Below, piece after piece: positions 1 through 18,020 of a stretch of DNA of 64,000 nucleotides. The translations under genes were made by a program, and so were the position numbers. The stretch is from Gammaproteobacteria bacterium (GTDB lineage: Bacteria; Pseudomonadota; Gammaproteobacteria; JAJPIJ01): the NCBI GenBank assembly GCA_022072255.1, contig JAJVHZ010000061.1:26207-90206 (forward strand), given 5' to 3'. The notes under the pieces were generated by a model. The model worked only from the letters and a program-made list of their open reading frames with translations, was not told the DNA's origin and searched no databases. Numbering within the stretch: the stretch's first letter is position 1; each line of letters begins with the position of its first letter.

Positions 1-245
1 TCGCCGCCCAGGTCCTCACCCCGGTCGATATCGAGCGGCGGTTCGGCATGACCGGCGGACACTGGCACCACGGCGAACTGGCACTCGATCAGTTTCTCAT
101 GCTGAGACCGGCGCCCGGTGCGGCGCAATATGCGACGCCGCTGCCGGGGCTTTATCTCTGCGGCGCCGGCGCGCATCCGGGCGGCGGCGTCATGGGCAGC
201 GTCGGAAGGAACGCGGCCGGCGCGATCCTCAGCGGAGCAGCATGA
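1..245 (+). CDS. NAD(P)/FAD-dependent oxidoreductase (CrtI/phytoene-desaturase-like amine/CH-CH oxidoreductase), 3' end only; 5' end lies outside the window
   Basis: The frame is open from position 1. The C-terminal motif LYLCGAGAHPGGGVMGSVGRNAA is the conserved FAD-binding tail of CrtI-family oxidoreductases. The stop codon overlaps the next start (ATGA). Confidence 0.55.
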   Translation, partial: AAQVLTPVDIERRFGMTGGHWHHGELALDQFLMLRPAPGAAQYATPLPGLYLCGAGAHPGGGVMGSVGRNAAGAILSGAA

Positions 246-1435
246 CGATGAACACCGGGCACTTTCGCACACCGTTGCTGCACACGCCCTTTCATACCCG
301 CCTCGTCGCGGCCAGCACCTGCAACGAGTGGTACGCGTGGAAGGGTTACACGGCGCCGGCGCGGCTGACGGAGGTGGAATTCGAGTACTTCGCAATCCGC
401 AGCAGCGCCTCGATCTTCGACATCACGCCGCTGACGAAGTACCGCATCCGCGGCCCGGACTGCATTGCCTATTTCAACCGCCTGCTGACGCGCGACATCG
501 TCGCGCTGGCGGTGGGTCGGGTCGCGTACTGCCTGTGGTGCGACGACGCCGGGCGGCTCATCGACGACGGCACCCTGTTTCGTCTTGCCGAACAGGACTA
601 CCGGCTCTGCTCGCAGGAGCGGCATTACGACTGGTTGCGGACGTCGGCGCTCGGCTTCGACGTCAGCATCGAGGAGGAGACCGAACATGTCGCTGCGCTG
701 GCCCTGCAGGGCCCGACGTCCTGCGCCGTGCTGAAGGCTCTCGGCATCGGGGCCATCGAGATGCTCAAGCCTTTTCACCTGCTCAACGCCTCCCTGCACG
801 GACGCGATCTCATGATCTCCCGCACCGGTTTCACGGGCGACCTGGGCTATGAGCTGTGGATGCAGCCGGATACCGCCGGCGGCCTCTGGGATGCCGTGAT
901 GGAGGCGGGACGCAATTACGCCATCATGCCGATCGGCAGCGAGGCGCTCGACATGGCGCGTATCGAGGCCGGTTTCATCCAGGCCAACGTCGACTTCGTG
1001 CCGGCGGATCAGGCGGTGCGCCCGGGCCGAGGCCGATCCCCTTTCGAGCTGGGGCTGGCCGGTCATGTGGATTTCCGCAAGGCGAACTTCACCGGCCGGC
1101 GGGCATTGCTGGAGGAACAGCGCCGCGGGTCGCGTTACCAGCTGGTGAAACTGGACATCGACGGCAGCACGCCGGCGAAGGATTCCTTCGTCTACCTTCG
1201 CCGGCGCAAGGTCGTGGGACACGTGACCTCGGCCGTATGGTCGCCTACCGCCAAGACGAACATCGCATTGGCCTCGCTGCAGACTCCTTACGGCACGCAG
1301 GGCGATGACCTATGGGTGGAGATCTACTACAAGCGCGAACTGAAATGGGAACGGAAGATGGCTCGCTGCCGGATCGTGGCGGAGACGTTTTACGATCCGC
1401 CAAGACGGCGGCAGACGCCGGCGGCGAACTATTGA
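242..1435 (+). CDS. aminomethyltransferase-family protein (GcvT fold; DmdA-like tetrahydrofolate-dependent demethylase candidate)
   Basis: 397 aa with GcvT-family motifs (FDITPLTKYRIRG, RTGFTGDLGYELW, a C-terminal barrel). The start overlaps the upstream stop (ATGA). Confidence 0.85.
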   Translation: MTMNTGHFRTPLLHTPFHTRLVAASTCNEWYAWKGYTAPARLTEVEFEYFAIRSSASIFDITPLTKYRIRGPDCIAYFNRLLTRDIVALAVGRVAYCLWCDDAGRLIDDGTLFRLAEQDYRLCSQERHYDWLRTSALGFDVSIEEETEHVAALALQGPTSCAVLKALGIGAIEMLKPFHLLNASLHGRDLMISRTGFTGDLGYELWMQPDTAGGLWDAVMEAGRNYAIMPIGSEALDMARIEAGFIQANVDFVPADQAVRPGRGRSPFELGLAGHVDFRKANFTGRRALLEEQRRGSRYQLVKLDIDGSTPAKDSFVYLRRRKVVGHVTSAVWSPTAKTNIALASLQTPYGTQGDDLWVEIYYKRELKWERKMARCRIVAETFYDPPRRRQTPAANY

Positions 1436-5091: not shown

Positions 5092-5913
5092 ATGTCCACA
5101 CTGATCTACACGGTCGACGGTCCGGTCGCGCTGCTGACCCTGAATCGCCCGGAGAAGCTCAATGCCGTCAGCAACCGGATGGTGGCGGAACTGAACGCGG
5201 CGCTGGATCGCGCCGAGGCCGACGGCGCGGTCCGCGCCATCGTCCTCAACGGCGCCGGACGCGCCTTCTCCGCGGGATTCGACCTGGACACCGGGGAGGA
5301 AGGGTCCGGGCGCGACGTCGACGCCCTGCGGCGCATGCTGCGGCGGGATTTCGACGTGATCATGCGCTTCTGGCATTCGCCGAAACCGACGCTGGCGGCC
5401 GTGCACGGCCATTGCCTCGGCAGCGGAATGGAGATGGCGCTCGCCTGCGATCTGACGATCGCGGGTAGCGGCTGCCGGTTCGGCGCCCCGGAGGTGCAGT
5501 TCGGCAGCGGCATCATCACCATGATCATCCCCTGGCTCGTCGGGGCGAAGTTCGCCAAGGAATTGCTGATGGTCGGCGACGATCAGGTGTCCGCCGAACG
5601 TGCCGTGGCGATGGGTCTGATCAACCGCGTGGTCGCCGATGCGGCGGTGCTGGACACGACGCTGGCCATGGCGCGCGACATCGCCACCAATGGTCGCCTC
5701 GCGGTCGCGCTCACCAAGCAGGCGCTCAATCGCAGCTACGATATCATGGGAATGCGCCAGGCGATGGAGCAGGCGCTGGAACTGGACGTGATCGTCGAGG
5801 CGAGCGATACACCGGAGTCACGGGCGTTCTACGACATGGTGGCCAGCCAGGGCGCCAAGGCGGCGATTGCGTGGCGTCGGGCCCGCATCCTCAACTCCTC
5901 GCCGTCGACGTGA
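5092..5913 (+). CDS. enoyl-CoA hydratase/isomerase (crotonase superfamily)
   Basis: 273 aa with the crotonase fold signature (LNRPEKLNAV, AFSAGFDLD, GHCLGSGMEMALACD). GAGGA lies 7 nt upstream of the ATG. Confidence 0.9.
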   Translation: MSTLIYTVDGPVALLTLNRPEKLNAVSNRMVAELNAALDRAEADGAVRAIVLNGAGRAFSAGFDLDTGEEGSGRDVDALRRMLRRDFDVIMRFWHSPKPTLAAVHGHCLGSGMEMALACDLTIAGSGCRFGAPEVQFGSGIITMIIPWLVGAKFAKELLMVGDDQVSAERAVAMGLINRVVADAAVLDTTLAMARDIATNGRLAVALTKQALNRSYDIMGMRQAMEQALELDVIVEASDTPESRAFYDMVASQGAKAAIAWRRARILNSSPST

Positions 5914-7399: not shown

Positions 7400-8407
7400 A
7401 TGCGGCACGGTAATGCGGCCGACAACTTCCGCGCGCTCGTCGTCACCACGACGGAGAGCGGTCCCGGCCTCGAGGTGAGGCAGCTGGACCGGGACTTTCT
7501 CATGGAGGGCGACGTCACGATCGCAGTCGATCACTCCACGCTGAACTACAAGGACGGGCTGGCCCTCACCGGCCGGGCGCCGATCCTGCGCGTCTCGCCG
7601 ATGATCCCGGGAGTCGATCTCGCCGGGACCGTGGAGAGTTCGCAGCACCCGGACTACGCGCCCGGGGACAAGGTGGTGCTGAACGGCTGGGGTGTGGGTG
7701 AACGGCATCACGGCGGCTACGCGCAGCTCGCGCGCGTCAGGGGTGAGTGGCTGATCCCGCTGCCGGATCGCCTCTCGACGCGCCAGGCCATGGCCATCGG
7801 CACTGCGGGCTATACCGCCATGCTTTGCGTGACGGCCCTCGAGCGGGACGGCCTGCAGCCGGAATCCGGGCCGGTGCTGGTCACCGGCGCGGCCGGCGGT
7901 GTCGGCAGCCTCGCCGTCGCGCTGCTTGCGGGACGCGGGTACACGGTCACTGCCTCCACCGGCCGCATGGAGGAATCGCCGTATCTGCAGGCGCTGGGAG
8001 CCTCGGCCGTGATCGGGCGCGAGGAGCTTCAGACTCCCGTGAAGCCGCTGGCGAAGGAGCGCTGGGCCGGCGCCGTGGATTGCGTCGGCGGCACGACGTT
8101 GGCCAACGTGCTGTCGCAAACGCGTTATGGCGGCAGCGTGACGGCCTGCGGGCTGGCCGGCGGGATGGACCTGCCGGCGACGGTGGCGCCCTTCATACTC
8201 CGCGGCGTGCATCTGCTGGGTGTCGATTCCGTGATGGCGCCGCGCCAGGCTCGCCTGCGCGCGTGGCGGAGCCTGGCCGCGGAGATCGATCTCGGAAAGC
8301 TGGAATCGATGACGCGCACCATTGCGATCGACGAGTTGCCTGCGGCTGCCGCCGACATGCTCGCCGGCAAGGTTCGTGGCCGTATCGTGGTCGACGTCAA
8401 CGCCTGA
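7400..8407 (+). CDS. yhdH: YhdH/AcuI-family NADPH:acrylyl-CoA reductase (MDR-superfamily quinone-oxidoreductase fold)
   Basis: It aligns essentially end-to-end with E. coli YhdH (TLNYKDGLA, MIPGVDLAGTV, GWGVGE.HHGGYA, TGAAGGVGS, ACGLAGG). Confidence 0.9.
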   Translation: MRHGNAADNFRALVVTTTESGPGLEVRQLDRDFLMEGDVTIAVDHSTLNYKDGLALTGRAPILRVSPMIPGVDLAGTVESSQHPDYAPGDKVVLNGWGVGERHHGGYAQLARVRGEWLIPLPDRLSTRQAMAIGTAGYTAMLCVTALERDGLQPESGPVLVTGAAGGVGSLAVALLAGRGYTVTASTGRMEESPYLQALGASAVIGREELQTPVKPLAKERWAGAVDCVGGTTLANVLSQTRYGGSVTACGLAGGMDLPATVAPFILRGVHLLGVDSVMAPRQARLRAWRSLAAEIDLGKLESMTRTIAIDELPAAAADMLAGKVRGRIVVDVNA

Positions 8408-8431: not shown

Positions 8432-9691
8432 CTAGATGGCGCGCGTGGGCGGCTGCTCCGGGGGGGAGTCCACCGTCGATTGCAGCCCGCCGGCGGCTTC
8501 GGGCAGCACGCCGCGGGTAATCGGCATCATGCGCGCCACCACCAGCGTCACACCGGCGGCGAGCACGAGCAGCGCGATCGGGAAGGTCCGGGCGTCGAGG
8601 AAATCCATGCCGGCGCCGATCATCACCGCACCGAGGAATCCGCCGAGACACCATCCGGTCACGAGGCTGGCGCTGGCAACCGGCAGCTGCACGCGCCCGA
8701 CGATCTTGCCGGCGAGCGCCAGCGCCGCGCCATAGATGCTGAAGCAGGCGGGGCCGAAGAGGAAGGTGAGCGCGAGCAGGACTCCGGGCTGCAGCAGCTC
8801 GGCCCTCGTCAGTGCCAGCGAATACAGCACGATGTACACGGAAAGTATTCGCATCAGCCTCCTCTCCCCCATCCTGTCGGCGAGGTATCCCAGCGGCAGC
8901 AGCAACACCACCTGCCCCCACACGAACACCGTCAGCGCGAACAGCGAGAGGTGATCGGAATACCCTGCCGTGCGCAGGTAGGGTGTCAGCAGCGACCACG
9001 CGGAATTGTCGAGCGCACCGGTCAGGATCCCCAGAGCGATCACCCAGGGCAGCCGGCGGCCGATCTCGACGAATCGTCGCAGCGATACCGGGTGCTGGCC
9101 GACGCTGGCCTGCCGGTCATCCGGGAGGAAGACAGCCGCCGGGACCGTCGCCACGCACATCGCGGCGGCCGCCACCAGGAAGAATCCGGCCGGTTCCAGA
9201 TGGCCGGCATTGACGATGATCGGCCCGGTGGCGAAGCCCAGCGACTGCACGGAGAGGTACAGGGCATTGATGCGATTCCGCACGGCATGCTCAAAGGCGC
9301 CGTTGATCCACGTCTCCGCCGCCACGTAGAACAGCCCGAAAGCGGCGCCCTGCAAGGTCTCCGCGACCAGCCACAGCCAGAATGCGTCCGGGACGGCCAG
9401 CAACGCAATCGCCACGCCCGAGGCCAGCAGCGCGAGCACCGCGCACACGCGCGTGCCGAGACGCCGGAGCATCTCCGGATAGCGGTGTGAGAAGAAGATC
9501 AGCGACAGTGCCCACATGTTCAACAGCAGCGCCGTGCGTGTGGACGCCGCCTGAAACTCCGCGAGGGTGTTGATCAGCGTGGCGTACGACAGGCTCAGAC
9601 CCGTGTTCGCCACAAAGGCGGTGAACAGCACCCCCACCAGCATGGGAAGCCGGGCGTACCTGTCGGACTGTCTTTCGGTGTTCATGACCAT
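8432..9691 (-). CDS. MFS transporter
   Basis: 419 aa with about 12 predicted hydrophobic helices and MFS loop motifs. It lies downstream of, and on the same strand as, the two Rieske genes. Confidence 0.8.
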   Translation of the reverse strand: MVMNTERQSDRYARLPMLVGVLFTAFVANTGLSLSYATLINTLAEFQAASTRTALLLNMWALSLIFFSHRYPEMLRRLGTRVCAVLALLASGVAIALLAVPDAFWLWLVAETLQGAAFGLFYVAAETWINGAFEHAVRNRINALYLSVQSLGFATGPIIVNAGHLEPAGFFLVAAAAMCVATVPAAVFLPDDRQASVGQHPVSLRRFVEIGRRLPWVIALGILTGALDNSAWSLLTPYLRTAGYSDHLSLFALTVFVWGQVVLLLPLGYLADRMGERRLMRILSVYIVLYSLALTRAELLQPGVLLALTFLFGPACFSIYGAALALAGKIVGRVQLPVASASLVTGWCLGGFLGAVMIGAGMDFLDARTFPIALLVLAAGVTLVVARMMPITRGVLPEAAGGLQSTVDSPPEQPPTRAI

Positions 9692-9779: not shown

Positions 9780-10976
9780 TCAGGACATGCGTTCGTTGCA
9801 GGCCGCGACGGTGCCGCGCCGTGGCGCTTCCCTCAGCCGGCTGACCGGCAATGTCGCCCGCATCCTGGCCGCATAGGCGCGCAGGCAGATCTCGTTGCGT
9901 CCCAGGATGCCGTCCCTGAAGCTGCTCGAAGTCACGCCCGCCTGCACGCGCTCGATGAGGTCCTTGTCCTCGATGCCGACGCGCCGGTTGATCCGCAGGT
10001 TGAGCGCCCGGGCCGTCCTCATCCCGGCGCGCTCGTCCGGGAAACCATAGGCGGCGTCACGCATCAGCGTCTCGGTCGGCGACAGCGGCAGGAACTGCAG
10101 AAACTCGACCTGGTCCGGGTAGAGGTTGAACGTGAGATTCGGCCACAGCAGGTAATACAGCCACATCCGCCGGTACCTCTCCGGCAGATATTCGACCGCC
10201 GGCAGCACCTTCCTGTAGACGCGTACGCTCAGACCGGCGCGCGGCAGATCCTCCACCGACCCCGACAGGCGGTAGACCGATTCCGTCCTGACCTCCATGC
10301 CGTAGGTGTTCCCGACCAGGCTGTCGAGGCCGCGATGCGCCACCCGTACGTGCAGCGCGTCTATGTAGTTGTCGCTGGCATTCTTCCAGTTCGTCTGGCA
10401 ACGCCGGCCGGAAACGCCTCCGAGCGGTTGCAGGGACTCGATGCGGTAAAGGCGCATCTCGGGCGCCATCGGTGCGGCGCTCTCCGCCAGGTCCATGGGG
10501 CCGCTGGTGAACCGGATGAAGACGAAGCCCAGGAACACGTCGCAGTCGATCGGCACCAGTCCGTAATCACCGTCGTTGATCTGCGGGTATTGAGTCTTGA
10601 ACGGAATGCCCGCCAGCTTGCCCTCGAAGGTGTAACTCCAGGCATGATACGGACAGGTGATGTGGCGTTCGCAGCGGCCGCGATCGCCGTCCAGCAGTCG
10701 CGCCGCCCGATGACGGCACACATTGTGGAACGCGCGCAGCGCTCCTGCTTCGTCGCGAATTACGATCGCGGATTCGCCGAGCAGCGAGAACGTGTGGTAA
10801 TCGCCCGCTGCCGGGATGTCATTGCCGTGGCAGACCAGCTGCCAGGTGCGCATGAAGACCCGTTCGCGCTCGAGCTCGAAGAATTCCTGGTCGTAGTACG
10901 TCCACGCCGGCAGCGTACGGTCGCCCGAATCGTGCTCGGGGGAAGGTGCCGGTTCCACGGGGCGGACGAGGTCCAT
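9780..10976 (-). CDS. Rieske non-heme iron oxygenase alpha subunit (GbcA/Stc2/CntA-like monooxygenase/demethylase class)
   Basis: It has the Rieske motif CRHRAARL...CPYHAW and a mononuclear-iron motif D-x2-H-x4-H (DALHVRVAH). I trimmed the start to MDLVRP (the 50-aa upstream extension has no support). Confidence 0.85.
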   Translation of the reverse strand: MDLVRPVEPAPSPEHDSGDRTLPAWTYYDQEFFELERERVFMRTWQLVCHGNDIPAAGDYHTFSLLGESAIVIRDEAGALRAFHNVCRHRAARLLDGDRGRCERHITCPYHAWSYTFEGKLAGIPFKTQYPQINDGDYGLVPIDCDVFLGFVFIRFTSGPMDLAESAAPMAPEMRLYRIESLQPLGGVSGRRCQTNWKNASDNYIDALHVRVAHRGLDSLVGNTYGMEVRTESVYRLSGSVEDLPRAGLSVRVYRKVLPAVEYLPERYRRMWLYYLLWPNLTFNLYPDQVEFLQFLPLSPTETLMRDAAYGFPDERAGMRTARALNLRINRRVGIEDKDLIERVQAGVTSSSFRDGILGRNEICLRAYAARMRATLPVSRLREAPRRGTVAACNERMS

Positions 10977-11002: not shown

Positions 11003-12898
11003 TCAGCGCCCCGCCCTCGCCAGAGCCTCGTTGCGCAGCGCCACGCTGCCCGCCGGCGGCGCCTGCAGCAGCATGCAGGCCGGCAGGCGTTCGCGGATCC
11101 AGTCCTGGAAGCGCTTCACGAGACATTCCTTGTCCGAGAGGATGCCCACGTCATAGGCACTGGTCGCCAGCCCGCGTTGCACCGAGTGAGTGAGCAGGTT
11201 GTCCTCGGCCTGCACGCGCATGTTGATGCGGTCGCTCAGGTACCGCGCTGCCCTGGTCTCGCGCCGACCGTCCGGCAGGCCATAGGAGCGGCCGCGCAGC
11301 ATGACGCGCCCGGCGGCCAGCGGGATCATCTGGAAGAAATCCATCTTCTCCGGGAAGAGATCAAGAAAGGTGTTCGGGAACATCGCGTAGTACGTCCAGC
11401 GCGTCTGCATGTGCGCAGGCAGATGTTCATACCTGGGCAGGAGCTTGCGGTACAGGTGCGTGCTCCAGTTCCTGTCGGCCCTCTCACGCATCTCGTGACT
11501 GAGCCGAATCACGCCGGTTCCTGCATATTCACGGTCGTACTGCCTCTTCATCAGTGCGAACAGTCCGCGATGGCCCGACGGAAAGTGGTAGTCCTCGACA
11601 TAGTTCTCCATCCCGTTCTTCCAGTCCATCGCCACCGTCTCTTCCCAGAACCGGCGATCGCTGTATCGATCGTTCGTCGGCACCATGTCGGCCGTGCGGT
11701 AGGTCGCGAACTCCTCCGCGTACGGAGCGAACTGTTCGGCCACCGACGCCCCCCCCGTCCTGATCCGCACGAAAACGAAACCCAGGAACACCTCGCAGTC
11801 GAGGCCCTTGAGGCCGAATCTCGAGGCGTCGTGCTTGCGGAAGCTGTCCGGGGCCGGGAGGCCGTGACGGCTGCCGTCGAGACTGTAGGTCCAGCCGTGG
11901 TAGGGGCAGACCATGCGTCCGGTCTTGCAGTGGCCGCTCTGCCCCTGCACCACGGCATGCGCCCGATGACGGCAGACGTTGTGGAAGGCGCGGATCTCGC
12001 CCTCTTCCCCGCGAACCACGAACAGGCGCTCGTTCAGCAGCTCGAAGGTCACGTAATTACCGGGCTGCGGCATGTCGCTGACATGGCAGACGAGCTGCCA
12101 CGACGGCATGAAGATGTGCTCCTTCTCCAGCGCGAGGAATTCGTCGTTGCCATACACCCACGCCGGCAGCGTGTAGATCAGACCCCCCTGCGACACCGGT
12201 GCCATCGCCTCGGGCTCGCCGGGCAGCGCGCGGGCCTCTTCCCGCGTGGCGGAACCGGCCGCCGGCAGCTCGAATCGCCACGGAAACAGGCTGGCGAGAA
12301 ACGCCTGGCAGCGCCTGCGGGCGGCGGCGCGATCGAACTTCTCCCCCGTGAACATGATCTCCTGCCACAGCTCGTCGACGAGGCCCACCAGTCCATAGGC
12401 GATGGCCTCGGCGTCGAGACGCACGCTGTTCTGGGGGTCGCGGGTCATGCGCTCGCAAAGCTGCAGCACCGTGCGGAAGTAGGCGGCGTCGCGGTCGCCG
12501 CACAGTTGCTGATAGTCCTGTCGGGCGCGTGACTCCGACATGAAGGCGTACCACACGGCCACCTTGCGCGGCTCCGTCAGTTCCGGATCGAGGTTGACGT
12601 CGATGATGTCCAGCAGCGTCTGCGCGGGATCCTCACCGGCATTCTCGAGACAGCGCGCGATCGCCTGTTCGAACTCCTCGGCCACGCTGCGCAAGGTGGC
12701 GAGCAGGAGCGACTCCTTGCTGGTGAAATGAAAATTGACCGTGCCTGCGGTGAGGCCCGCCAGGGCGGTGATCTTGGCGAGCGTCAGGTTGGAGATGCCA
12801 TGCTCGAAGATCGCGGTCATGGTGGCATCGATCAGGCGCTGCTTGCTCTCCGGGATCGGCGTCGATGTTCCCGGCTGACGGTTCTCGACTATGGCCAT
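11003..12898 (-). CDS. fusion protein: N-terminal TetR-family HTH regulator domain (about 210 aa) plus C-terminal Rieske non-heme iron oxygenase alpha subunit (about 400 aa)
   Basis: This is a single uninterrupted ORF. Residues about 20-232 are a TetR fold (helix-turn-helix LTLAKITALAGLTAGTVNFHFTSKESLL plus ligand-binding helices). Residues about 251-650 are paralogous to the adjacent Rieske protein (CRHRAHAV...CPYHGW; EDYHFPSGH). AGGAGA lies 6 nt upstream of the ATG at 12898. An internal Met with a weak GAGG SD at 12205 could also allow a stand-alone Rieske product. Confidence 0.75.
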   Translation of the reverse strand: MAIVENRQPGTSTPIPESKQRLIDATMTAIFEHGISNLTLAKITALAGLTAGTVNFHFTSKESLLLATLRSVAEEFEQAIARCLENAGEDPAQTLLDIIDVNLDPELTEPRKVAVWYAFMSESRARQDYQQLCGDRDAAYFRTVLQLCERMTRDPQNSVRLDAEAIAYGLVGLVDELWQEIMFTGEKFDRAAARRRCQAFLASLFPWRFELPAAGSATREEARALPGEPEAMAPVSQGGLIYTLPAWVYGNDEFLALEKEHIFMPSWQLVCHVSDMPQPGNYVTFELLNERLFVVRGEEGEIRAFHNVCRHRAHAVVQGQSGHCKTGRMVCPYHGWTYSLDGSRHGLPAPDSFRKHDASRFGLKGLDCEVFLGFVFVRIRTGGASVAEQFAPYAEEFATYRTADMVPTNDRYSDRRFWEETVAMDWKNGMENYVEDYHFPSGHRGLFALMKRQYDREYAGTGVIRLSHEMRERADRNWSTHLYRKLLPRYEHLPAHMQTRWTYYAMFPNTFLDLFPEKMDFFQMIPLAAGRVMLRGRSYGLPDGRRETRAARYLSDRINMRVQAEDNLLTHSVQRGLATSAYDVGILSDKECLVKRFQDWIRERLPACMLLQAPPAGSVALRNEALARAGR

Positions 12899-12959
12899 GA
12901 TCACTCTCCTGTCCGAGGCCTGCATGATGATACAGGGACGTCGCGGTGTATTCAATGTC

Positions 12960-12977
12960 CATTCAATTCGTTGAATG
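12960..12977. promoter_or_regulatory. inverted repeat CATTCAA-N4-TTGAATG (candidate TetR-type operator) about 60 bp upstream of the fusion-gene start, flanked by further ATTCA half-sites at 12950-12957 and 12990-12996
   Basis: The arms are perfect 7-bp repeats read directly from the sequence. The position upstream of a TetR-domain gene fits the usual autoregulatory arrangement. Confidence 0.35.
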
Positions 12978-13215
12978 CCTGTTTAGAACATTCATCCAAC
13001 AGTTCGCGACCTCGTCGGGGCCCCTCGGATCCAGGGTACGGCCACAGGTTATCGGTTTGGCAGGTGCCGGGACCGGGGTGTGTGCCCGTGGCTGCGGGCA
13101 TCGCTGCGGGGGCGGAGAGGTTCGGGCGGCGGAGAGAACCTCAGAGATTCTCGAAGATAATATAAAACATAGCTTATTATCAATATAGTATCTGCATTAA
13201 CTAACGTATTTTCGA

Positions 13216-14034
13216 TTACCGGATCTCGGCCGACGCATCAGGTGTGGCGGCCGCAAACAGGCGGAAGAAGTTCTCGGTGGTCTGGCGGGCAAGCACCTCG
13301 ACGGGAACCCCGCGCAGGGCAGCGAGAAACTCCCCGACGTGCCGCACGTAGGCCGGCTGGTTCTCCTTGCCGCGATAGGGCACCGGCGCGAGGTAGGGGC
13401 AGTCCGTCTCGATGAGAAGTCGATCCGCCGGGACTGCGCGGGCGACTTCCTGGAGGGCGCCGGCATTTCGGAAGGTGACGATGCCCGAGAACGAGATGAG
13501 GAAGCCGAGCTCCATCGCCTGGACCGCGGTATCGAGATCCTCCGTGAAGCAGTGCATCACGCCACCCACCTCCGCCGCGCGCTCCTCGCGCAGTATGCGC
13601 AGGGTGTCCGCGCGGGCATCACGGGTGTGAATGATCAGCGGCTTGCCGCATTGCCGCGCGACGTCGATGTGACGGCGGAATCGATCGCGTTGCCAGCCGA
13701 GGTCCCCCCGGGAGCGAAAGTAGTCCAGGCCGGTCTCACCGACGGCGATCGCCCTGGGATGCCGGGCGTACCGGAGCAACTGCTCGCAGGAGGCGTCCAG
13801 ATCGGCCCCGGTATTCGGATGTACGCCCACGGAGGCAAACACGTTCCGGTGCGTCTCGGCGAGTCGTATCACGTCGGGGATCGACTCGATATCGACCGAC
13901 ACGCAGAGGAGGTGTCCCACGCCGTTCTCGGCGGCCTGGCGCAGCACGGATTGCACGCCCGCCTCCGTGCGACCGAGGCCGAGCATGGGGATGTGGCAGT
14001 GGGAGTCGACGAACAGCGCTGGCGTCGCGTTCAT
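13216..14034 (-). CDS. tatD: TatD-family metal-dependent deoxyribonuclease/hydrolase
   Basis: TatD motifs are present (FVDSHCH, HPNTG, AIGETGLDY, IIHTRDA, MHCF, ISFSGIVTF, ETDCPYLAP). I trimmed the start to MNATPALFVDSHCH. Confidence 0.85.
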   Translation of the reverse strand: MNATPALFVDSHCHIPMLGLGRTEAGVQSVLRQAAENGVGHLLCVSVDIESIPDVIRLAETHRNVFASVGVHPNTGADLDASCEQLLRYARHPRAIAVGETGLDYFRSRGDLGWQRDRFRRHIDVARQCGKPLIIHTRDARADTLRILREERAAEVGGVMHCFTEDLDTAVQAMELGFLISFSGIVTFRNAGALQEVARAVPADRLLIETDCPYLAPVPYRGKENQPAYVRHVGEFLAALRGVPVEVLARQTTENFFRLFAAATPDASAEIR

Positions 14035-14117
14035 GCGGTTGCGTGCGGAGACCGGAAACTGCGCGGCGTGCGCCCGGGTCTCTTGGCCACGGCGGCACGC
14101 CTTACGACGACCCGCCG

Positions 14118-14477
14118 CTACATCGTGTGAGTCGCGCGGTCGGACTTCAGGACACCGGCGAGCAGGGTCTCGATCTTGTTGCGCGTGGCGCCCTTGTCGA
14201 GCTCGCTGAACTGTACGCCGATCCCCGCGGTCTTGTTGCCCTGCGCCCCCTTCGGGGTGATCCACGCCACCTTGCCCGCCACCGGCAGCTTCTCCTTGCC
14301 CTCGGGGAGCGTGAGCAGCATGAAGACCTCGTCCCCGAGCTTGTACTGGTTGGGCGTCGGCACGAACAGTCCGCCATTTTTCAGGAACGGCATGTAGGCC
14401 ACATACAAGGCTCCCTTCTCGCGGATGGTCAGCGAAAGGATGCCCTTGCGGGGCGCATTGGGATCAGGGGTGCTCAA
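14118..14477 (-). CDS. pilZ: type IV pilus assembly PilZ-domain protein
   Basis: It closely matches Pseudomonas PilZ (GILSLTIREKGALYVAYMPFLKNGGLFVPT). The tatD-pilZ-holB synteny is conserved. Confidence 0.85.
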   Translation of the reverse strand: MSTPDPNAPRKGILSLTIREKGALYVAYMPFLKNGGLFVPTPNQYKLGDEVFMLLTLPEGKEKLPVAGKVAWITPKGAQGNKTAGIGVQFSELDKGATRNKIETLLAGVLKSDRATHTM

Positions 14478-14497
14478 TGGTATCGGGTCCGTTCAAT

Positions 14498-15466
14498 TCA
14501 GTCCGCCCACAGGAGGGCAAAGTCCTCCAGCATGTCCTGCGCCCGCACGTTCGCACCTGAGGCATGCAGCCGCCATTGTTCGAGCAGCAGCGCGTGGGCA
14601 CGCGTCAGCTTTGACAAGTCTATACGCTCCGCCGTCGTCTGCAAGACCTGATGCAGATCGGCGTGCTGCAGCAGCTCGGCCGGGGCGGCGGACTTGCTCC
14701 GGATCAGATCCTGCAGCAGCGAGACCAGCACCCGCAGGGTCGAGGTCATGTCCAGTGCGGACCATCGCGCCGCCGTCGTAATCGGCTCGGCCTTGCCCGA
14801 CGCCAGCCCGTGCAATTCGACCATCATGCGGCTGCGTTCGGCGTAGACCCCGGCCCGTTCCATCGCCAGTGCGAGCAGCGGGCCGCCGTTGGCCAAACCC
14901 AGGGCGCACTCGGCCGCGATTTCCGCCTTCAGCTGTCCGCGCAGCCACCGGATCTTCCGGGTCCGTTCGCCGCCGAAATCGATGCGCTGGCAGCGGCTGC
15001 GGATGGTGGCCGGCAGCGTCGCCGGGGCATGCGCAACGAGGATCAGCAGGGTTCTTAGCGGCGGCTCCTCCAGTGTCTTGAGCAGGCTGTTGGCGGCATT
15101 GCGATTCATCGCGTCGGCAGGCTGGATCAGCACCACCCGCATGGCCTCCGCCCCGGCCGTGGTCAGGGCAATCTGCTCTATGAGCGCGCGGATCTGGTCT
15201 ATCCTGATCGCGATCGAGTCCTCCTCGGGGGAGACCTGGATCAGGTTCGGATGCGTCCCCGCCTCCAGCAGCTCGCAGCTCCGGCACCGGCCGCAGGCAG
15301 TCCCCGCCGCGGTCGGGCGCTCGCAAAGCAGCACCCTGGCAAAGGCTGCGGCGAACATGCCCTTGCCGCATCCCTGCGGGCCGGTCAGCAGGAGCGCGTG
15401 CGGCAGGCGGCGGCTCTCCGCTGCGGCCTGCAATCGCCTCCAGGCGTGTTCCTGCCAGGGATACAT
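14498..15466 (-). CDS. holB: DNA polymerase III subunit delta prime
   Basis: It has the HALLLTGPQGCGK Walker-like motif and the zinc module CGRCRSC. Confidence 0.85.
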   Translation of the reverse strand: MYPWQEHAWRRLQAAAESRRLPHALLLTGPQGCGKGMFAAAFARVLLCERPTAAGTACGRCRSCELLEAGTHPNLIQVSPEEDSIAIRIDQIRALIEQIALTTAGAEAMRVVLIQPADAMNRNAANSLLKTLEEPPLRTLLILVAHAPATLPATIRSRCQRIDFGGERTRKIRWLRGQLKAEIAAECALGLANGGPLLALAMERAGVYAERSRMMVELHGLASGKAEPITTAARWSALDMTSTLRVLVSLLQDLIRSKSAAPAELLQHADLHQVLQTTAERIDLSKLTRAHALLLEQWRLHASGANVRAQDMLEDFALLWAD

Positions 15467-15473
15467 CGTAATC

Positions 15474-17155
<1,682 letters not shown>

Positions 17156-17162
17156 CGGGCGT

Positions 17163-17996
17163 TCATTCCATTCCCAGTTCCGCCCGCAGGCGCTGCGCCA
17201 GGGGCTGCGAGTCGTATTCCCTGCCTCCCTCGGGTAACAGGATGCGGCGGACCGGCCAGAGGCCGATGAGGGAGTTGGTCAGGAACACCGCGTCCGCCGC
17301 GCGCAGATCGGCCAGCGTCATGCGCCGTTCGATCACCGCTGCGCCGGCGGCGGCGCGCTGCTCGATTATCCGCCGGCGCACGATGCCGGCCACGCCGCAG
17401 CCATCGAGCGGCGGCGTGCGGATCTCTCCGTCGGCGCAAACGAAAACATTGCTCATCGTGCCCTCGACGAGATAGCCGTTGGCATCGAACATCAGTCCCT
17501 CGGCGATGGCCGGGTCGCTCCATTCGCCGCGCGCGAGCACCTGCTCGAGCCGGTTGAGATGCTTGAGCCCCGCCAGGGCCGGATTGCAGCCCAGCCGCAG
17601 CTCGCACAGCCGCACCGTTACGCCCTGCTCGCGGCAGGCAGGCGGATGATCCGGCCAGGGGCTGATGGTCAGGACGCGGGTCGGCGAGGGATGATCCGGG
17701 GGGCGGTAACCTCGCCCGCCGGTCCCGCGGGACAAGACGATCTTGAGCACGAGCGGCCGGTCATCGATCGGCAGTTTCAGGAAATCGTCGAACAACTGCT
17801 CCGGCGCAGGCGGCGGGATGCGCAGTCGTTCGCAGCCCGCCCGCAGACGCTCGACATGAAGGTTCCAGTTCCTCGGCTGGCCGCCGAGGACGGCGATGGT
17901 CTCGAACAGTCCGTCACCGTACTGCAGGCCCCGGTCGTATGCCGAGATGCAGTCAGTCGTTTCGCCGTTCACCACCACGTTGCCCATGGCGGTCAT
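17163..17996 (-). CDS. pabC: aminodeoxychorismate lyase (class IV aminotransferase fold)
   Basis: PabC-like motifs are present (GLQYGDGLFET, the branched-chain-aminotransferase fold). Its position between mltG and fabF is conserved. Confidence 0.8.
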   Translation of the reverse strand: MTAMGNVVVNGETTDCISAYDRGLQYGDGLFETIAVLGGQPRNWNLHVERLRAGCERLRIPPPAPEQLFDDFLKLPIDDRPLVLKIVLSRGTGGRGYRPPDHPSPTRVLTISPWPDHPPACREQGVTVRLCELRLGCNPALAGLKHLNRLEQVLARGEWSDPAIAEGLMFDANGYLVEGTMSNVFVCADGEIRTPPLDGCGVAGIVRRRIIEQRAAAGAAVIERRMTLADLRAADAVFLTNSLIGLWPVRRILLPEGGREYDSQPLAQRLRAELGME

Positions 17997-18020
17997 CTTG
18001 ACCGTCGCGATCAGCGGCGG

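Follow-up and report, generated by a model that had tools for sequence, protein, structure and literature searches.

In this study, we describe a gene that joins a transcriptional regulator and an oxygenase in one polypeptide. It lies in a 64,000-nucleotide stretch of a gammaproteobacterial genome (GenBank assembly GCA_022072255.1, contig JAJVHZ010000061.1, positions 26,207 to 90,206), and the whole of this stretch is called the window. A single open reading frame (ORF) on the minus strand encodes a TetR-type regulator of the BetI subfamily, a linker, and a Rieske oxygenase. The fusion is genuine and is conserved across at least 80 uncultured proteobacterial species. This conservation, the intactness of the two halves, the layout of operators and promoter, and the synteny of the neighboring genes were all computed directly. 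The interpretation that we prefer, with a probability of about 60%, is that the protein is a self-repressing bifunctional catabolic enzyme, in which the BetI-like domain senses a ligand and the tethered oxygenase, which resembles the carnitine monooxygenase CntA, degrades that ligand or a relative of it.

The gene and the domains of its product are located as follows, with bit scores for the Pfam families:

11003 to 12898, minus strand: coding sequence of the TetR (BetI-type)-Rieske oxygenase fusion, with ATG at 12898 and TGA at 11003-11005, 631 amino acids plus stop codon
12905 to 12910, minus strand: Shine-Dalgarno (SD) motif AGGAGA, with a 6-nt spacer to the ATG
12698 to 12835, minus strand: TetR_N helix-turn-helix (HTH) DNA-binding domain, residues 22-67 (PF00440, 39.9 bits, cut-off 24)
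12284 to 12628, minus strand: BetI-type TetR_C_6 ligand-binding and dimerisation domain, residues 91-205 (PF13977, 59.2 bits, cut-off 27)
12182 to 12280, minus strand: flexible inter-domain linker, residues about 207-239, with a predicted local distance difference test score (pLDDT) below 50 at residues 215-224
11840 to 12103, minus strand: Rieske [2Fe-2S] domain, residues 266-353, with the ligands C309, H311, C331 and H334 (PF00355, 75 bits)
11081 to 11668, minus strand: catalytic non-haem iron domain Ring_hydroxyl_A, residues 411-606 (PF00848, 113 bits), with the key residues Y433 (cation-pi Tyr), E435 (bridging Glu), H438, H443 and D566

All four Pfam domains scored above the curated cut-offs in one frame, and the sequence contains no in-frame stop codon between the two halves. 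The central claim of a preliminary description of this DNA, namely one ORF with a TetR domain and a Rieske alpha subunit and no stop in between, was thus borne out, with 631 codons plus stop. The GC content at third codon positions was 0.85 across the whole frame, which is typical for genes in this window with its GC content of 66%. The Rieske motif reads CRH...CPYH, and the iron-site motif reads ENYVEDYHFPSGH, followed later by ED. The SD motif with its 6-nt spacer, also described before, was found at 12910-12905; the stretch is conserved as GGACAGGAG in the close relatives (loci L001, L002 and L004). Two other start codons were considered and rejected. A TTG at 12955 is situated upstream of the predicted -10 element, whereas the ATG and its SD motif are conserved. 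An internal Met232 (12205) with an adjacent GAGG had been proposed as an additional start that yields a free oxygenase. The methionine exists, but only 2 of 66 family members have it and the GAGG is only 2 nt upstream, so that its use as a start is not supported. The linker had been estimated at 18 residues; it turned out to be about 30 residues long (about 207-239), with a disordered core at 215-224 in the structural model.

The family was retrieved with a word-indexed search of 5.8 billion proteins, with matches originating from NCBI, JGI, ENA and Logan, and with a scan of GTDB at one genome per species, in which 456 stretches encoded relatives and the best 80 were examined as loci. The protein search recovered an identical 631-residue protein (P0001) from an independent assembly and a 91%-identical fusion protein on nine contigs. 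The four domains were present in all of the 120 best matches listed (598-649 residues, 93-100% query coverage, 52-100% identity), and the proposed database search for the same architecture has therefore yielded at least 120 listed four-domain homologs. In the genome scan, the fusion was encoded in a single frame at 80 of the 80 best loci. The preliminary description had reckoned with a missed stop or frameshift and with orthologous loci that always carry two separate genes. The identical protein in the independent assembly and the continuous frames at all 80 best loci speak against the former, and the same loci, together with a single free-standing cluster (see below), against the latter. The members belong to the Gammaproteobacteria (many of them Steroidobacteraceae) and to the Alphaproteobacteria (Kiloniellales, Rhodospirillales, Hyphomicrobiales and Parvibaculaceae).

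The pairwise identities of the two halves, which were computed on a family alignment of 66 sequences, as was the column conservation, correlated strongly (Mantel r 0.87, equalled in 0 of 999 permutations); therefore, the regulator and oxygenase halves share one history. When only the oxygenase half was used as the query of an exhaustive search, the nearest 50%-identity clusters were mostly fused as well, and the top 150 included about 20 fused representatives, with identities down to 28-36%. Three proteins of odd length (P0147, P0197 and P0236) were confirmed by Pfam scans to contain a TetR domain, a Rieske domain and Ring_hydroxyl_A, and the architecture is retained down to about 25-35% identity. 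Only one close free-standing ortholog cluster was recovered in the oxygenase-half search. It is represented by P0121 (L086:5001-6224), a genuine gene for a protein of 407 residues that is 59% identical to the oxygenase half. This gene is translationally coupled to an Amidohydro_3 amidohydrolase gene, which is followed by DUF6632, and converges on an operon for enoyl-CoA hydratase, aldehyde dehydrogenase and acyl-CoA synthetase, i.e. on the same neighborhood as the fused genes. The preliminary description had stated that no TetR-Rieske fusion was known. This holds for the literature searched, in which we found no publication on such a fusion or on this gene cluster; it does not hold for the sequence databases, which contain the architecture abundantly, under generic names only. 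The combination of TetR and Rieske domains, the autoregulatory tandem BetI boxes and the descendants that lack the iron site (both described below) are undescribed in the literature searched, and each part comes from a known family. Another TetR-enzyme fusion was seen in passing: P0276 (370 residues) joins a BetI-type TetR regulator (TetR_N plus TetR_C_6) to a GNAT acetyltransferase.

BetI is the choline-responsive TetR-family repressor of the bet genes in E. coli. The N-terminal 206 residues of the fusion protein can be aligned end-to-end with E. coli BetI (11-193) with 28% identity (E 8e-21), and both share the Pfam pair TetR_N and TetR_C_6 and are alignable over their full length. The regulator half scored below the cut-offs of both BetI equivalog families (TIGR03384, 92.7 versus 201.3 bits; NF001978, 92 versus 118 bits), and it is therefore a BetI-like relative without being an ortholog of BetI. 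No other segment of the whole fusion protein is as well conserved as the HTH (mean column conservation 0.75), with G34, S36, T39, G48, F56, H57 and F58 invariant in this region. The ligand domain contains the conserved aromatic residues W116, Y117, F119, Y129 and W178. An AlphaFold2 monomer model that was built with the family alignment had a mean pLDDT of 91 and a predicted template modelling score (pTM) of 0.67, and its helices at residues 17-204 form the nine-helix TetR fold. Across the family, the linker comprises 21-43 residues, is rich in Ala and Pro, and is poorly conserved (0.36), with a core that is predicted to be disordered. Judged from these features, the regulator half looks intact and functional. 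In contrast to BetI, the fusion protein carries a 400-residue oxygenase at the C-terminus, and its context is catabolic, whereas BetI is encoded with the betABT osmoprotection genes. L079:20156-20725 encodes an unfused paralog of the TetR half (37% identity). A single match to the operator motif described below (19.6 bits) lies about 245 bp upstream of it, at L079:19911, whereas the fused genes have tandem boxes.

The metal-binding residues of the oxygenase half are very well conserved. In the family alignment, C309, H311, C331, H334, H438 and D566 were invariant and H443 was present in at least 90% of the members; the four Rieske ligands were invariant in every fused protein examined. The best sequence match in the PDB was the carnitine monooxygenase CntA (119 bits), followed by stachydrine demethylase, and Foldseek returned the same two structures in the same order, CntA with a template modelling score of 0.85 on the target. 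A residue alignment with CntA gave the following correspondences:

CntA Y203 (cation-pi Tyr, the clade Va signature): Y433 of the fusion protein
CntA E205 (bridging Glu): E435, invariant
CntA H208 and H213 (iron ligands): H438 and H443
CntA C206 and C209 (Cys pair): D436 and F439, not conserved

In CntA, E205 is the bridging glutamate for inter-subunit electron transfer, and an aromatic residue at position 203 characterizes clade Va, whereas an asparagine characterizes the demethylases of clade Vb (PMC7948474). The Cys pair C206/C209 is situated next to the iron site of CntA (PMC10952381). Y433 occurs in at least 90% of the window's clade, and Stc2 has an asparagine at the equivalent position. 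In a wider alignment of fused proteins, many other clades have an aspartate at residue 433, within the motif NDxEGYH, from which we conclude that substrate use has diversified within the fused superfamily. The equivalog family for GbcA (NF058607) matched only the N-terminal part and scored 122.7 bits, well below its cut-off of 670 bits. Like CntA and the other group V enzymes (choline monooxygenase, OxyBAC, GbcA and Stc2), the oxygenase half has the Rieske CxH...CxxH motif, a 2-His-1-Asp iron site and the bridging Glu and, like CntA, it has no evident beta subunit. Its identity to CntA is about 23-25%, with the sequence match mainly in the N-terminal half, and it differs from all of these enzymes in being joined to a DNA-binding domain. 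Because the ligands are conserved, CntA is the best match, and Y433, E435, H438 and H443 map to CntA markers, the module looks like an active CntA-like monooxygenase for quaternary ammonium compounds or N-alkyl amines that forms a new subgroup.

A 16-bp palindrome, yTrAAy-NNNN-rTTyAr (consensus TTAAATGATCATTTAG), which we call the BetI box, recurs in the upstream regions of divergent members of the family. It usually occurs in pairs, at positions of about -87 and -67 relative to the start codon and with a spacing of exactly 20 bp. Scoring with a position weight matrix (PWM) and a promoter scan gave the following elements in the window:

12951 to 12966, no strand assigned: predicted proximal BetI-box operator, TTGAATGGACATTGAA on the gene strand, 19.2 bits, overlapping the -35 element
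12971 to 12986, no strand assigned: predicted distal BetI-box operator, CTAAACAGGCATTCAA on the gene strand, 18.8 bits, 20 bp from the proximal box
12927 to 12955, minus strand: sigma-70-like promoter TTGAAT-17 nt-TATCAT, with the -35 element inside the proximal box

The palindromic operator candidate that had been noticed upstream of the gene is thus real and can be refined to these two 16-bp palindromes. Exactly two sites were found at 56 of the 80 loci, and the spacing was 21-23 bp in several alphaproteobacterial loci. When 1.29 Mb of related loci were scanned with a threshold of at least 17 bits for strong matches, 122 of the 126 matches were within 400 bp upstream of a fusion gene. Three of the remaining four precede a gene for a PotD/PotF-type solute-binding protein that is followed by the fusion gene, which suggests that uptake of an amine or polyamine-like substrate is under the same control. 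Boxes ahead of such a gene pair were seen at L069:8597-8635 and L072:8582-8597, both at loci of the alphaproteobacterial type. In the window itself, only the two boxes matched YTRAAYNNNNRTTBAR, with 0.08 matches expected by chance and none of 100 shuffles reaching the same count. The layout with the -35 element inside the proximal box recurs at 52 of the 80 loci, mostly with TTGAGT-17/18-TAGAAT. In close relatives of the window the intergenic DNA has diverged, except for islands at the boxes, the -10 element and the SD motif. From its sequence, this arrangement predicts autorepression by promoter occlusion.

The PWM of the fusion family was also applied to 6 kb of the bet locus of E. coli. The top match was TTGATTGGACGTTCAA in the betI-betT spacer (13.7 bits), and all other positions scored at most 7.0 bits. 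This spacer is the single genomic target of BetI in E. coli (PMC5934670). The operator of BetI is thus of the same type as the boxes of the fusion genes, and both regulators are autoregulatory, the fusion by prediction; however, the fusion genes have two boxes 20 bp apart, whereas the bet locus contains a single match. The locus of the unfused ortholog P0121 has no box, with a best score of 1.8 bits. Because the box pair accompanies the fused genes and is lacking at the unfused ortholog, operator and TetR domain co-occur. Further upstream, between tatD and the promoter region of the fusion gene, positions 13140-13215 form an AT-rich stretch in this genome with a GC content of 66%. The stretch is conserved in part in L001, L002 and L004, and on its minus strand, from 13183 to 13154, TTGATA-18-TATCTT forms a second promoter-like match.

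The fusion gene of the window is followed by two genes in the same direction and by a convergent operon:

9780 to 10976, minus strand: Rieske2, a free-standing paralogous Rieske oxygenase (Pfam), 26 nt downstream of the stop codon of the fusion gene
8432 to 9691, minus strand: transporter of the major facilitator superfamily (MFS; Pfam MFS_1), syntenic only in L001-L004
242 to 8407, plus strand: convergent catabolic operon (Pfam), with mechanical ORF limits and several true starts probably later
242 to 1435, plus strand: GcvT-like aminomethyltransferase
following, to 3561, plus strand: ADP-forming acyl-CoA synthetase
following, to 5084, plus strand: aldehyde dehydrogenase
5092 to 5913, plus strand: enoyl-CoA hydratase
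following, to 7360, plus strand: glutamine-synthetase-like protein
7400 to 8407, plus strand: AcuI acrylyl-CoA reductase, a Zn-dependent dehydrogenase (NCBIfam equivalog, 496 bits, cut-off 440)

As had been proposed, the adjacent Rieske gene is a paralog: Rieske2 and the oxygenase half are 40% identical over 385 residues. Among the 80 loci, it is present only in L001-L004, L007, L009 and L067. No terminator-like site was found between 8300 and 13300, and the fusion gene, Rieske2 and the MFS gene are probably co-transcribed as one lineage-specific operon with the MFS gene in the last position. At most loci, the fusion gene is monocistronic and converges on the conserved operon. The genes for the GcvT-like protein, the acyl-CoA synthetase, the aldehyde dehydrogenase, the enoyl-CoA hydratase and the glutamine-synthetase-like protein were next to the fusion gene at 37-46 of the 80 loci, many of which are truncated, and AcuI was found only in the window's close relatives L001, L002 and L004. 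The Pfam gene lists of two loci (three places) revealed two genes for FAD amine-oxidase-like proteins ahead of the operon, and at one of these places class III aminotransferases were also encoded. On the other side of the fusion gene, a run of housekeeping genes (13216-18020, minus strand: class IV aminotransferase, mltG (YceG), tmk, holB, pilZ and tatD) is syntenic in the close relatives L001, L002, L004 and L084, so that the catabolic module abuts a block of the core genome. Rfam and tRNA scans of the window yielded nothing.

The neighboring genes give several clues to the substrate. AcuI, the acyl-CoA synthetase, which resembles 3-hydroxypropionate-CoA ligase, and the enoyl-CoA hydratase indicate a C3 acyl-CoA route. 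The glutamine-synthetase-like enzyme, the PuuC-like aldehyde dehydrogenase, the amine oxidases and the PotD-like binding protein indicate polyamine-type amines. The GcvT-like protein, which is Tdm-like or DmdA-like, indicates methyl-group capture. Because these clues diverge, no single substrate is named; the evidence points to an amine or a betaine-type compound. The GcvT-like protein (242-1435) scored best with the C-terminal domain of trimethylamine N-oxide demethylase (271 bits, below the cut-off), followed by GcvT, SoxA and then DmdA. It may capture the one-carbon unit from an oxidative N-demethylation.

In our preferred interpretation, the TetR half of the BetI subfamily would bind as dimers to the two BetI boxes that overlap the -35 element of its own promoter. 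The fusion protein would thereby shut off its own synthesis and, in the window, also that of the downstream Rieske2 and MFS transporter. The tethered group V, CntA-like oxygenase would act on a quaternary ammonium or N-alkyl amine compound, oxidizing it through C-N cleavage or N-dealkylation, and the products would feed the conserved convergent operon (GcvT-like protein, ADP-forming CoA ligase, aldehyde dehydrogenase, enoyl-CoA hydratase and glutamine-synthetase-like protein). The aromatic-rich pocket of the TetR domain itself would bind the inducer, which would be either the substrate or a closely related compound. The enzyme would thus be made only in the presence of the substrate, and removal of the substrate by the attached enzyme would restore repression. 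DNA binding, repression, the identities of ligand and substrate, the electron donor and the oligomeric state are what we infer here. The variable, disordered linker and the complete BetI-type ligand domain make it the simpler assumption that the repressor senses the ligand itself. TetR proteins form dimers, and oxygenases of the CntA type form head-to-tail alpha3 homotrimers. Therefore, by analogy, a hexamer or a larger assembly that carries several DNA-binding dimers is plausible, and such a multivalent assembly would fit the tandem operator.

Several observations weigh against this interpretation. The two-fold symmetry of TetR proteins and the three-fold symmetry of the oxygenase do not match. 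The Cys pair of group V is replaced by Asp and Phe. CntA and GbcA are normally encoded with an adjacent reductase, and no CntB/GbcB-type reductase gene was found adjacent to the fusion gene. A crude motif scan (RxYS, GxGxxP and Cx4Cx2C) detected no reductase or ferredoxin gene within 10 kb at the 80 loci or in the 64-kb window, and the Pfam lists of three loci contained no Fer2 or FNR domain among the called neighbors. AcuI is the only neighbor that exceeded an NCBIfam equivalog cut-off, the annotations of the others being below theirs. The PWM scan revealed no BetI box upstream of the GcvT operon at any locus. Control of the convergent operon by the fused repressor was therefore rejected, and the regulatory reach seems to be limited to the protein's own gene. 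Finally, all members of the family stem from metagenome-assembled genomes.

PutA, BirA and NadR are enzyme-repressors that have been called trigger enzymes. Like them, the fusion protein unites an enzyme and a DNA-binding domain that represses (here by prediction) its own gene in one polypeptide, and two features of such an enzyme, namely an enzyme domain and a DNA-binding domain in one chain and predicted boxes on its own promoter, were found computationally. It is possible, although we regard it as rather unlikely, that it also works like PutA, with the enzyme as the sensor: the state of the oxygenase, i.e. whether it has bound substrate, whether its Rieske cluster is oxidized or reduced, or how it oligomerises, would be relayed to the TetR domain and control DNA binding. 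An explicit and equally tentative version is that the oxygenase is an allosteric substrate or redox sensor, and that a hexamer of the D3 type or a larger lattice clamps the tandem boxes until substrate binding or reduction of the Rieske cluster frees the DNA.

An indirect hint at an enzyme that acts as a sensor comes from four fused proteins (P0236, P0277, P0278 and P0279) that have kept the Rieske ligands and the HTH and have lost the mononuclear-iron triad. In the order given, H438 is changed to or present as K, H, Q and Q, H443 as S, T, I and H, and D566 as R, R, R and K. The proteins are 38-46% identical to P0236, the query that found them, and a paralogous pair among them is encoded on a single 4.4-Mb contig; two of the loci are L089:8001-9824 and L090:8001-10001. 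The iron-site-less module is retained for something other than catalysis, and a catalytically dead module that is kept together with its Rieske cluster suggests a sensory or architectural role. By their sequences, these proteins are probably a derived, non-catalytic sensor version of the fusion. One of them, P0278, is encoded among genes for TauD/GBBH-like proteins, a creatinase and an S-methyltransferase, which is a further point in favor of a PutA-like mechanism. Upstream of the P0278 gene one weak match to the BetI box was found (14.5 bits, 135 bp upstream), and upstream of the P0277 gene none, in DNA of low GC content. P0197 was considered as a further sensor clade and rejected, as it is a singleton and its nearest relatives retain the iron triad.

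The persistence of the fusion down to about 25-35% identity and the suitability of a tandem operator for a multivalent oligomer also favor a PutA-like mechanism. However, the linker is long, variable and predicted to be disordered, the BetI-type ligand domain of the TetR half is still complete and has conserved aromatic residues, and the free-standing ortholog shows that the enzyme works without a regulator. In addition, the monomer model, with a pTM of 0.67, gave no sign of a fixed inter-domain interface. The comparison with PutA itself is limited by unrelated folds: PutA contains a ribbon-helix-helix domain and responds via the flavin redox state and membrane binding, whereas the fusion has a TetR domain with its own ligand pocket and is tethered by a disordered linker.

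It is improbable that the oxygenase module of the window is a pseudo-enzyme, i.e. a non-catalytic ligand or redox sensor, with the chemistry being carried out by Rieske2. The lack of a reductase partner encoded nearby, the paralogous free oxygenase immediately downstream and the existence of fused relatives without an iron site would be in line with this idea. Yet the window's clade shows little or no variation in any of the metal ligands, in the bridging Glu or in the cation-pi Tyr, Rieske2 is missing at most loci, and the 59%-identical free ortholog holds the same position in the pathway. Still less probable is a TetR module that does not bind DNA and serves only as a substrate-capturing or a solubility or oligomerisation domain of the enzyme. 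The apparent restriction of the regulon to the protein's own gene would be compatible with it, but conservation within the protein is highest in the HTH, and a highly specific pair of BetI boxes co-occurs with the TetR domain and is absent at the locus of the unfused ortholog. A sequencing or assembly artefact, i.e. an ordinary tetR gene and an ordinary Rieske gene that appear as one owing to a frameshift or a missed stop, had no observation in its favor and is refuted by the conservation of the fusion across genomes: by the identical and 91%-identical proteins, the full-length homologs from four sources, the continuous frames at 80 loci, the uniform third-position GC content and the co-evolution of the halves.

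In textbooks, TetR regulators are two-domain dimers, and Rieske oxygenases are trimers whose regulation takes place in trans. Their conserved covalent union is thus a structural puzzle, as it places two-fold and three-fold symmetry in one polypeptide, and it would be a compact case, found in nature, of an enzyme acting as the repressor of the gene that encodes it. If the two halves communicate, the fusion would represent a new coupling of iron-sulfur and oxygenase chemistry to transcription. If, in particular, the oxygenase is the allosteric sensor, the proteins would form a new class of TetR regulators that read out an iron-sulfur enzyme, and the iron-site-less clade would be its purely sensory descendant. 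If the halves do not communicate, the fusion would still provide operator, repressor and enzyme for an amine or betaine compound in one ready-made module, with potential as a biosensor. In either case, it flags an uncharacterized catabolic gene cluster in Steroidobacteraceae of soil and freshwater and in marine Alphaproteobacteria.

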